Source: a virus
Strand: one strand, 5' to 3'
IMG/VR virus record: IMGVR_UViG_3300044732_002213
Length of the DNA stretch: 14,520 bases
The translations under genes were made by a program, and so were the position numbers. Below, one piece after another: positions 7,801 to 8,538 of the stretch (position 1 is its first letter; each line of letters starts with the position of its first letter). Below the pieces are notes generated by a model. The model searched no databases, was not told where the DNA came from, and saw only the letters and a list, made by a program, of their open reading frames with translations.

Positions 7801-8052
7801 TTACAATTGTCCCTTATGTAAGGGTACCTTGGATATTATCTTCCAGGGAGATTTATTCAGATAAATCATGCCACTAGAGAATCCTTGGGATACACACCAC
7901 TGTCTCAAATTACAGGTTTCCACCTGCTCTTGAGTAATTGAATTCTGTAACACAAATGTCATACGAGATCTAGGAATGCCTTTCTGATAGGGTTTAGATC
8001 TATCTGCGGCTCTTCTCTTAACCCCTTGAGATATTTTTTGGCGAGTTTCTTA
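7801..8052 (-). pseudogene. In-frame C-terminal continuation of the second HNH gene beyond a single TAA at 8052-8050. It encodes about 82 further codons homologous to the C-terminal DNA-binding half of HNH-1, so the HNH-2 gene is interrupted (pseudogene or stop-codon recoding candidate).
   Basis: Translating the minus strand in the HNH-2 frame past the TAA gives ETRQKISQGVKRRAADRSKPYQKGIPRSRMTFVLQNSITQEQVETCNLRQWCVSQGFSSGMIYLNKSPWKIISKVPLHKGQL*, with the stop at 7803-7801. Compare HNH-1 ...EEQRAKRRETLAKHS...KFHTILYNTKTHEQLETTH...FYSGNSGWIIKEKWSIKTHKRII*. No other stop or frameshift occurs in 7801-8538, and the total length (246 codons) equals that of HNH-1 (248). Confidence 0.55.
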
Positions 8053-8538
8053 TGAACATTCCCAATCACCCCTAGCCAAAAGGCGCGTGTGTTTCTGATC
8101 CTCGCTCATAGATTTGCCTTTATTATGTGCCCCGCCTTTTGCTGCTATTCCCTCTTTTACTTTCTGAATATGCTCTGGAGAAAGTTTCTTGCCTTTGTTA
8201 TGTACCTTCATTGCCTCGCTCATGCCAGTTTTGATATTTTGATATTGCCGAGAAGACATTCGGAACCTGTCTCGTTTCTTATTATCTTGTGTCATCCGCC
8301 ACAAGGCAAAGGCCATTTTTCTTGCATTGACCCCAAAGGTCATTTTGGTAAGTAATAAATGTGCTACAAAATGTTCTTTGCCAGTAAGTCTAACAAGATT
8401 ATCTTTTGCATCATTGCCCCCTAGGCTCTTGGGAATAATATGATGTTTTTCAGTATAGACAGATCTATCTAAATTTCTAGTTTGAGCATTACTAACCAAT
8501 GAGATATACCAAGAGGTATATTTGTTATTGATAAACAT
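8050..8538 (-). CDS. HNH homing endonuclease paralogue: intact nuclease-domain ORF of 162 aa (MFINNKYTSWYISLV...KHHIIPKSLGGNDAKDNLVRLTGKEHF...HNKGK repeats), terminated by TAA at 8052-8050
   Basis: ATG at 8538-8536 with GGAG 8 nt upstream on the minus strand. The ORF track extends to an upstream TTG/GTG at 8622, which would run through the conserved leader element. About 60% identical to HNH-1 over the nuclease domain. Confidence 0.75.
   Translation of the reverse strand: MFINNKYTSWYISLVSNAQTRNLDRSVYTEKHHIIPKSLGGNDAKDNLVRLTGKEHFVAHLLLTKMTFGVNARKMAFALWRMTQDNKKRDRFRMSSRQYQNIKTGMSEAMKVHNKGKKLSPEHIQKVKEGIAAKGGAHNKGKSMSEDQKHTRLLARGDWECS

Follow-up and report, generated by a model that had tools for sequence, protein, structure and literature searches.

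The gene on the minus strand between positions 8538 and 7801 of the 14,520-nucleotide stretch of DNA analysed in this study (the window) is likely a Mob-like homing endonuclease gene that was recently truncated by a nonsense mutation and that is now in the decay phase of the homing cycle. Its 738 nucleotides contain a premature TAA codon, which is replaced by GAA in an orthologue residing at the same locus of a sister lineage. Three origins had been offered for the interrupted frame in the initial annotation: a very recent pseudogenisation, a sequencing error, and a regulated read-through yielding a short and a full-length product. The first of these is best supported, as the GAA-containing orthologue is intact and the stop codon is confined to a single nearly clonal lineage.

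Results

A reading frame interrupted by a single stop codon

Translation of the minus strand reveals a frame that starts with the ATG at 8538, proceeds through 162 sense codons to a TAA at 8052-8050, which is followed by a G, and continues in the same register for 82 further sense codons up to a second TAA at 7803-7801, as had been described initially. These two codons are the only in-frame stops between 8538 and 7801, and the region contains no frameshift. The chance that 82 codons would stay open, computed from the base composition of the gene, is about 0.002. Gene and surroundings contain the following features:

8050..8538, minus strand: retained 5' open reading frame from ATG 8538-8536 to the premature TAA, with 162 codons covering the HNH core (EKHHIIPKSLGG...DN...KEH..AH) and two NUMOD3-like motifs
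8050..8052, minus strand: premature TAA at codon 163, which is GAA (Glu) in the sister lineage, from a codon-by-codon comparison with contigs L001-L009, L027 and L028
7801..8049, minus strand: downstream open frame of 82 codons with the natural TAA of the family at 7803-7801, covering a third NUMOD3-like helix and the C-terminal module
8545..8548, minus strand: Shine-Dalgarno sequence GGAG, 6 nucleotides 5' of ATG 8538, from a survey of the sequences upstream of the window's genes
350..1096, minus strand: HNH-1, an intact paralogue of 248 amino acids, from BLASTP; variably present among contigs that share 99.7% identity elsewhere

When the frame is read across the stop at codon 163, its 245 codons align without gaps to P0001, an intact protein of 245 amino acids retrieved in a protein search, with an identity of 97% over the full length and a glutamate at the position of the stop. 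This collinearity, with TAA opposite GAA, bears out the view that the gene carries exactly one lesion and no shift in frame. The 245-codon reading also aligns to HNH-1, again free of gaps throughout, and BLASTP assigns the pair 40% identity over 242 residues at an E-value of 3e-52, which confirms the proposed paralogy. The alignment extends past the stop, where ILYNTKTHEQLETTH is found opposite VLQNSITQEQVETCN and GWIIKEK opposite PWKIISK, and it thus includes the peptide pairs on which the homology of the downstream frame to the C-terminal half of HNH-1 had been based. The same block is conserved in a family alignment of 18 full-length sequences, with the pattern …PR…N..T.E…T.nLr.Wc…G…W.I..K…G.

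The stop had been placed after the nuclease domain, which holds insofar as the HNH core precedes it and is retained in the 162-codon product together with two NUMOD3-like motifs. It does not, however, coincide with a domain boundary, as codon 163 lies within the third of these motifs (S-E-E-T-R-Q-K-I-S). With the GGAG preceding ATG 8538, the truncated frame appears to keep a normal translation start, and the 82 downstream codons would be out of reach for ribosomes initiating at this position.

An intact allele at the same locus of a sister lineage

The comparison of alleles in related genomes, which had been suggested as a check, has identified an intact orthologue with GAA at the corresponding codon. 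The contigs encoding P0001 (L001-L009) share synteny with the window: genes for MVP-like, PP-loop and saccharopine-dehydrogenase-like proteins lie on one flank, and those for MCD-like and PTH2 proteins on the other. Between the two alleles, 20 of the 738 nucleotides differ, among them position 8052, which is T in the window and G in the allele of P0001, thereby distinguishing TAA from GAA. Two further intact haplotypes (L027 and L028) also contain GAA, so that the three sister haplotypes agree in this codon. The sister lineage is 3-5% diverged from the lineage of the window, and the identity of the gene (97.3%) is similar to that of the flanking DNA (94.6-96.7%), which argues for vertical descent at one locus and against a recent import. 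A disabling lesion opposite an intact syntenic orthologue, as expected for a unitary pseudogene, is therefore found at codon 163.

Distribution of the interrupted allele

The alleles were gathered through exact-protein look-ups. The exact product of 162 amino acids occurs in 74 blocks of a public assembly collection. Over the full 738 nucleotides, including the TAA, no difference from the window is seen in 13 contigs that span the entire gene (L010-L017 and L029-L033), and the downstream frame is open in each of them. These contigs were assembled from different runs by ENA, JGI, NCBI and Logan, and they are consensus sequences, which do not reveal minor alleles within samples. Another contig (L034) is identical over the 511 nucleotides that it covers. 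In the cluster at 90% identity, which also contains partial forms, the truncated protein is found in a form of 162 amino acids on 40 contigs and in a form of 190 amino acids on eight, the latter being the same frame called from an upstream ATG. The intact protein is found on about 20 contigs. A search with a DNA pattern across the stop, in which the codon itself was left unspecified (NNN), found no match in the collections viral_contigs and metagenome_contigs, both of which evidently do not contain these samples.

Constraint and age of the mutation

The ratio of nonsynonymous to synonymous changes (dN/dS) between the lineages amounts to 0.15 upstream of the stop (codons 1-162) and to 0.09-0.17 downstream of it (codons 164-245), where it relies on only 2-4 nonsynonymous and 3-6 synonymous changes. 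The test that had been proposed to tell a decaying frame from a recoded one could be carried out and has returned the same value on either side of the stop, but it has no discriminating power. The lineage with the TAA is nearly clonal. When the tail-fibre repeats are excluded, it shows 0-4 single-nucleotide differences per 10-14 kb, and it is invariant between 7801 and 8538 in the 13-14 contigs that cover these 738 nucleotides. Since this invariance is combined with tiny counts of changes, dN/dS cannot separate a recent decay from a retained function; the ratio is for the most part a record of changes from before the mutation arose or along the branch of the intact lineage. Given the near-clonality, the absence of further lesions is expected, and the anticipated number of variable sites in the 249 downstream nucleotides of this lineage is below 0.1. 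As judged from the distribution of the two alleles, the mutation would predate the common ancestor of the sampled contigs carrying the TAA and postdate the split from the intact lineage, at a dS of about 0.08.

Family and architecture of the encoded protein

By its sequence, the gene is a free-standing Mob-like HNH/NUMOD3 homing endonuclease gene of the MobE type. The intact allele matches PHROG 655, annotated as 'homing endonuclease', with an E-value of 1.2e-43. In Pfam it remains just below the curated thresholds, with 20.7 bits for HNH at a cut-off of 21.4 and 17.1 bits for NUMOD3 at a cut-off of 20.4, and many of its homologues carry a precomputed match to PF07460. Three NUMOD3-like motifs were spotted by eye (G-K-K-L-S-P-E-H, N-K-G-K-S-M-S-E-D and the S-E-E-T-R-Q-K-I-S that contains the stop). 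The HNH (beta-beta-alpha-metal) catalytic motif is present, and its residues H32, H33, N47, H56 and H60 are invariant across the 18 homologues of the family alignment. A tblastn search of 50,697 phage records matched 1,079 of them, and the best matches in cultured phages, annotated as MobE or mobD homing endonucleases, are 37-40% identical over 70-90% of the protein. At the nucleotide level, a megablast search of the same kind of records with the whole window found no match and blastn of the locus just matches of about 100 nucleotides inside HNH motifs. The gene is bordered by the 3' end of the MVP-like gene on one side and by a tRNA cassette on the other, and it has its own GGAG. An intron or intein setting was ruled out by this placement, by the ribosome-binding site, and by Rfam searches, in which no family was detected in the window at the gathering threshold and none between 8540 and 8900 in a permissive scan.

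The part of the protein encoded downstream of the stop is unusual in its distribution. In AlphaFold models calculated from the family alignment, residues ~193-239 are predicted to form a compact module with the order strand-strand-helix-helix-strand and a pLDDT above 90. This module is rare: a search of 1.84 billion representatives yielded 18 matches with E ≤ 0.001, and the module is almost always found at the end of proteins of ~240-250 amino acids. The exceptions among the 18 are one stand-alone fragment of 86 amino acids and three N-terminally truncated forms, which look like other decayed copies and would suggest that decay is common in the family. Searches for similar folds returned no significant match, a sequence search of the PDB matched only the HNH motif, and this weakly, and I-HmuI (PDB 1U3E) gave no significant sequence match. 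Mob proteins share an N-terminal HNH domain that is combined with a protein-specific C-terminal domain, which is presumably DNA-binding (Wilson & Edgell, PMC2790892), and by analogy to MobE and I-HmuI the C-terminal half of the protein studied here may equally bind DNA.

Genomic neighbourhood

The gene is convergent with the MVP-like gene and divergent from the tRNA cassette. Two elements border it on either side:

7757..7782, no strand assigned: GC-rich hairpin of 11 bp separating the 3' ends of the MVP-like gene (7729, plus strand) and of the studied gene (7801, minus strand), terminator-like on the plus strand, from a terminator scan
8569..8615, minus strand: two leader hairpins 5' of the ribosome-binding site, from RNA folds of both lineages

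The first leader hairpin is formed by CCTGTTG/CAACAGG in the window and by CCATTTG/CAAATGG in L001, and its pairing is thus kept while its sequence differs. The wider context comprises genes for homospermidine-synthase-like, TilS-like, PTH2 and tail-fibre proteins, and proteins with 37% identity to the MVP-like protein are encoded by LR756500, LR756501 and LR756503, 'uncultured phage' genomes with sizes of 462-735 kb. Together, these features point to a relative of huge phages as source of the window.

With respect to mobility, both close lineages carry the gene, and the distant contigs L018 and L036 contain no copy beside their MVP-like gene, with a gene order that differs. In a search for an empty site that proceeded from relatives of the MVP-like protein, the contig with the closest one (82% identical) does not extend past the gene, and the remaining contigs differ in their gene order. 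A NUMOD3 protein of 288 amino acids is encoded in the same position and orientation by a relative with 68% identity in the MVP-like protein. The paralogue HNH-1 is present in the window and in L011, replaced by a phrog_314 homing endonuclease of 280 amino acids in L010, and absent from the sister lineage, a polymorphism that points to active endonuclease turnover nearby.

The neighbouring tRNA genes carry tRNA-like inserts of ~50 nucleotides on the 3' side of the anticodon, and tRNA cassettes have been swapped. Such inserts were termed 'enigmatic introns' in Lak megaphages (PMC6784885). The possibility that the 48-nucleotide insert is a repeated mobile element was rejected, since it is single-copy and specific to the window lineage. 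The sister lineage contains a tRNA(CUA), of which the window lineage keeps the 5' half alone, and its amber-suppressor tRNA is thus broken. These tRNA genes with their inserts are a more curious feature of the locus than the truncated gene itself.

Discussion

Consequences of the truncation

The comparison of alleles suggests a simple course of events. A single G-to-T change on the coding strand would have turned the GAA (Glu) at codon 163 into TAA, and ribosomes initiating at ATG 8538 would now release a protein of 162 residues that contains neither the C-terminal module nor the third NUMOD3-like helix. This HNH fragment is probably still translated. In analogy to MobE and I-HmuI, the lost module would have supplied the recognition of the target site, and the gene would most likely no longer work as a homing element and have entered the phase of decay, with the 82 downstream codons remaining open only for want of time for more damage. 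The probable loss of homing activity is suggested by the missing conserved C-terminal module. It would be in line with the occupancy of the site, since the gene is found in both sampled lineages and no empty target is seen among close relatives, so that selection for endonuclease function should have lapsed. Loss of function after fixation is part of the homing cycle as it is set out by Gogarten and Hilario (2006, PMC1654191) and in a further account (PMC13619312).

The main uncertainty in assigning the gene to decay concerns the short product, which may keep some activity. We consider it unlikely that the 162-residue protein with its HNH domain and two NUMOD3 motifs has remained an active nickase, perhaps of lower specificity or lower toxicity, or has acquired a new role, with the allele kept by selection. 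Several observations would be compatible with such a function and count against decay. The start codon is preserved, as is a good GGAG ribosome-binding site, the catalytic residues show no change, and no relaxed constraint is measurable in the downstream frame, where the changes are few. Moreover, natural homologues of 162-172 amino acids that do not contain this C-terminal module exist in several clusters, and the short protein is therefore not necessarily inert. These homologues, however, have a conserved tail of their own (…SELWYKRHAETHKGK) rather than being simply cut short, whereas the stop described here falls inside a NUMOD3-like motif and respects no domain boundary. Mob enzymes have also been described as bipartite, with a C-terminal part presumed to bind DNA (PMC2790892). 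The larger number of contigs with the truncated allele could hint at a truncation that is tolerated or favoured, but the counts originate from one nearly clonal population and are uninformative on selection.

A second alternative, in which the TAA is read through in a programmed or suppressor-mediated manner to generate a nuclease-only and a full-length product, appears very unlikely. It would account for the single in-frame stop followed by an intact frame, and interference with termination does occur in this group of phages, as illustrated by the amber-suppressor tRNA(CUA) of the sister lineage and by release-factor-like ORFs in the relative with the 82% identical MVP-like protein. The stop is, however, absent from the sister lineage and confined to one nearly clonal lineage, and it is thus no recoding site conserved among diverged relatives. 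Within the window, TAA ends eight of the 16 larger ORFs and is the commonest terminator, which includes the natural end of the gene that is common to the intact lineage; TAA is therefore no sense codon here. A UAA followed by G is an efficient terminator in bacteria, as known from studies of release-factor context. Within the DNA available, neither a decoding agent nor a stimulatory structure was found. A CUA anticodon reads UAG and not UAA, and the respective tRNA is broken in the window lineage. Scans of the window and of 36 related loci (10-43 kb per genome), an intron-tolerant one included, detected no tRNA with a UUA anticodon. The RNA surrounding the stop, a segment of 146 nucleotides extending from ~20 nucleotides upstream to 120 nucleotides downstream, folds no better than shuffled sequences (z -0.47). 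Finally, the stop-codon recoding surveyed in phages concerns TAG and TGA (10.1101/2021.08.26.457843). We infer that no read-through occurs, and the proposal of a regulated read-through is not sustained. A related idea, that the TAA could act as a conditional gate, has been derived from the manipulation of termination in this group, with the amber-suppressor tRNA of the sister lineage, the release-factor-like genes of the relative, and the unexplained inserts in tRNA genes. Occasional read-through might then be enabled late in infection by a tRNA that decodes ochre codons or by an altered release-factor activity, the default product being a harmless nuclease-only fragment and the full homing enzyme being made only under particular conditions, which we regard as highly improbable.

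Also hard to reconcile with the data, and in our view scarcely credible, is a two-piece enzyme, whose C-terminal module would be made separately from ATG 7962 (Met-194, 53 amino acids) and work in trans with the N-terminal fragment. The corresponding ATG-initiated ORF (7801..7962) covers the confidently folded module, and the stand-alone homologue of 86 amino acids starts near the same break point. Yet, this ATG has no Shine-Dalgarno sequence at a workable distance, whereas most genes of the window contain (A)GGAG at -6 to -10, Met-194 is not conserved in the family, the 53-residue ORF was left uncalled by gene callers in any of the contigs, and stand-alone C-terminal modules are rare (one of 18 matches). 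Internal restart at Met-194, the first in-frame ATG past the stop, was rejected on account of the missing ribosome-binding site at 7962.

Last, an artefact in which the true base at position 8052 would give a sense codon has in its favour the prior alone that single-base errors occur in metagenome assemblies, and its probability is negligible in light of the identity of the TAA and its flanks in 13 whole-gene contigs obtained from different read sets with different pipelines, of the presence of the product in 74 blocks, and of the location of the site outside any homopolymer (TTCATAAGAAAC).

Relationship to known systems

The gene resembles the Mob family of phage T4 (MobA-E, with MobE described by Wilson & Edgell 2009, PMC2790892) in being free-standing, residing neither in an intron nor in an intein, in the sequence type of its N-terminal HNH domain, in its family-variable C-terminal part, and in its assignment to PHROG 655. 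It differs from these proteins by an identity of only about 30-40%, by the truncation of this copy, by a C-terminal module that is almost devoid of relatives outside its own small family, and by its host genome, which belongs to an uncultured huge-phage-like lineage. An extended modular layout with an HNH domain, helical DNA-contacting linkers and a separate C-terminal DNA-binding domain, which the studied protein would share, is found in I-HmuI (PDB 1U3E; PMC2790892), whose C-terminal helix-turn-helix domain was, however, not recovered for the studied module in our searches.

A precedent for the proposed decay is I-TevIII of T4, which was inactivated by deletion, is intact in a related phage, and illustrates that such a gene can persist without its own mobility (PMC2790892). 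In both cases, an HNH homing endonuclease is disabled in one phage lineage and intact in a relative, but I-TevIII is encoded by an intron and carries a deletion, whereas the gene described here is free-standing, interrupted by a single nonsense codon but otherwise intact, and would be at a much earlier stage of decay. With a site that is occupied in both lineages and an inactivating mutation in one of them, the locus corresponds to the prediction of the homing cycle, which leads from invasion over fixation and degeneration to loss (Gogarten and Hilario 2006, PMC1654191; PMC13619312), although this model was framed mainly for endonucleases borne by introns or inteins and the loss of function is in our case inferred. 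The recoding of stop codons in phages, where TAG is assigned to Gln and TGA to Trp (10.1101/2021.08.26.457843), shares with our gene the in-frame stop within a phage gene and the presence of relatives with suppressor tRNA and release-factor-like genes. It is distinguished by the fact that the TAA is here the main terminator and interrupts the gene once and in one lineage only, and that the suppressor tRNA reads TAG and belongs to the sister lineage, with a broken copy in the lineage of the window.

Collectively, the gene would be an unremarkable new member of its family, one mutation into its decay, and would exemplify a familiar stage of an established life cycle. Its assignment removes a possible false lead, as the interrupted frame reflects no assembly error and most likely no recoding, and it identifies the 'hypothetical proteins' of 162 and 190 amino acids contained in many metagenome records as the front part of a 245-residue Mob-like endonuclease. 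The phage lineages that carry the intact and the nonsense allele were found in assemblies with neighbouring ENA accession numbers. The two alleles, which are 2.7% apart, constitute a natural matched pair that could serve to test the role of the C-terminal module.

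Gene content and sequence divergence

In the otherwise clonal contigs of the window lineage, almost all sequence differences reside within the repeat array of a tail-fibre-like gene, whose product contains a long succession of repeats of about 51 nt (17 aa, …NTAVG…).

12170-14503, - strand: tail-fibre-like protein, 777 aa, with a Peptidase_S74 chaperone domain
5240-7729, + strand: MVP-like (major-vault-protein-like) gene, 829 aa, with an MVP shoulder domain

The MVP-like gene has relatives in the thousands, located on contigs that reach 570 kb in length, and its product shares 37% identity with proteins from three uncultured phages of 462-735 kb (LR756500, LR756501 and LR756503). 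In a relative with 82% identity in the MVP-like protein, release-factor-like ORFs (PCRF/RF-1; locus L035, 1177-1881) adjoin a saccharopine-dehydrogenase-like gene.

The region surrounding the intact paralogue HNH-1 (100-1304; HNH-1 at 350-1096, - strand) shows a presence/absence or replacement polymorphism, with HNH-1 being carried by the window and the contig L011, whereas L010, which is 99.7% identical elsewhere, instead contains a 280-aa phrog_314 homing endonuclease together with other ORFs, and the sister lineage with the intact HNH allele is devoid of both endonucleases. In the slot corresponding to 4365-4597, the sister lineage harbours two additional genes, encoding a 270-aa protein of the R2K family (PF14243/PF18299, phrog_7313) and a 120-aa ORF, in place of which the window lineage has merely a 48-aa remnant ORF.

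Distinct tRNA genes and leader elements of the two lineages

Between both lineages, the sole segment of the neighbourhood that cannot be aligned is a cassette consisting of a promoter-like site and a tRNA, which lies upstream of the HNH gene at a distance of 95-270 nt (8633-8807, compared with 5948-6083 in L001, a contig of the sister lineage). Each cassette contains its own promoter-like site of the form TTGACA-N17-TA(A/T)ATT, and in the sister lineage the slot is occupied by an 88-nt tRNA with a CAT anticodon and a long variable arm. The presence in the window of a TilS-like PP-loop gene, which is closed by a tandem TAG TAA (5197-5202), raises the question of whether this CAT tRNA is modified by lysidine.

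4597-5199: TilS-like PP-loop gene
8593-8615, - strand: first of the hairpins in the HNH gene leader (L001 6101-6122, + strand)
9889-9936, + strand: remnant of a tRNA with CUA anticodon, with the new junction (intact tRNA in L001 4792-4867, - strand)

In the first leader hairpin, the pairing is retained despite a change in sequence (CCTGTTG/CAACAGG in the window and CCATTTG/CAAATGG in the sister lineage), which suggests that it is a conserved structural element. The CUA-anticodon (amber-suppressor) tRNA is intact in the sister lineage, while the window retains only its first 35 nt (9889-9923). The sequence breaks off exactly in its anticodon loop, and a hairpin of 8 bp (9917-9936) is formed by the new junction. 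The additional 842 nt found at this site in the sister lineage comprise the 3' half of the tRNA and a 189-aa ORF.

Structured inserts in tRNA genes

A tRNA-Pro(CGG)-like gene was identified in the window by the intron-tolerant mode of ARAGORN and remained undetected by default ARAGORN and by Rfam.

8687-8811, + strand: tRNA-Pro(CGG)-like gene

Its D, anticodon and T stems are all perfect, the T-loop reads TTCGAAC and the ACCA end is encoded; directly 3' of the anticodon (position ~37/38), it carries a structured insert of 48 nt. Inserts of 48-51 nt are found at the same position in at least five further tRNA genes of related loci.

L010, c16775-16914 and c17816-17953: insert-bearing tRNA genes
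L001, c15004-15131: insert-bearing tRNA gene
L036 (a more distant related locus), 8031-8158 and 10667-10794: insert-bearing tRNA genes

Three of the inserts from related loci are clearly homologous to each other and, since a closing stem, a hairpin and a hairpin resembling a T-arm are common to all three, are themselves tRNA-like; of these elements, the insert in the window contains just the closing stem and the T-arm-like one. [quoted passage not shown] As a candidate route for their removal in a bacterial host, we envisage that RNase P and RNase Z might excise the inserts ahead of a ligation step.
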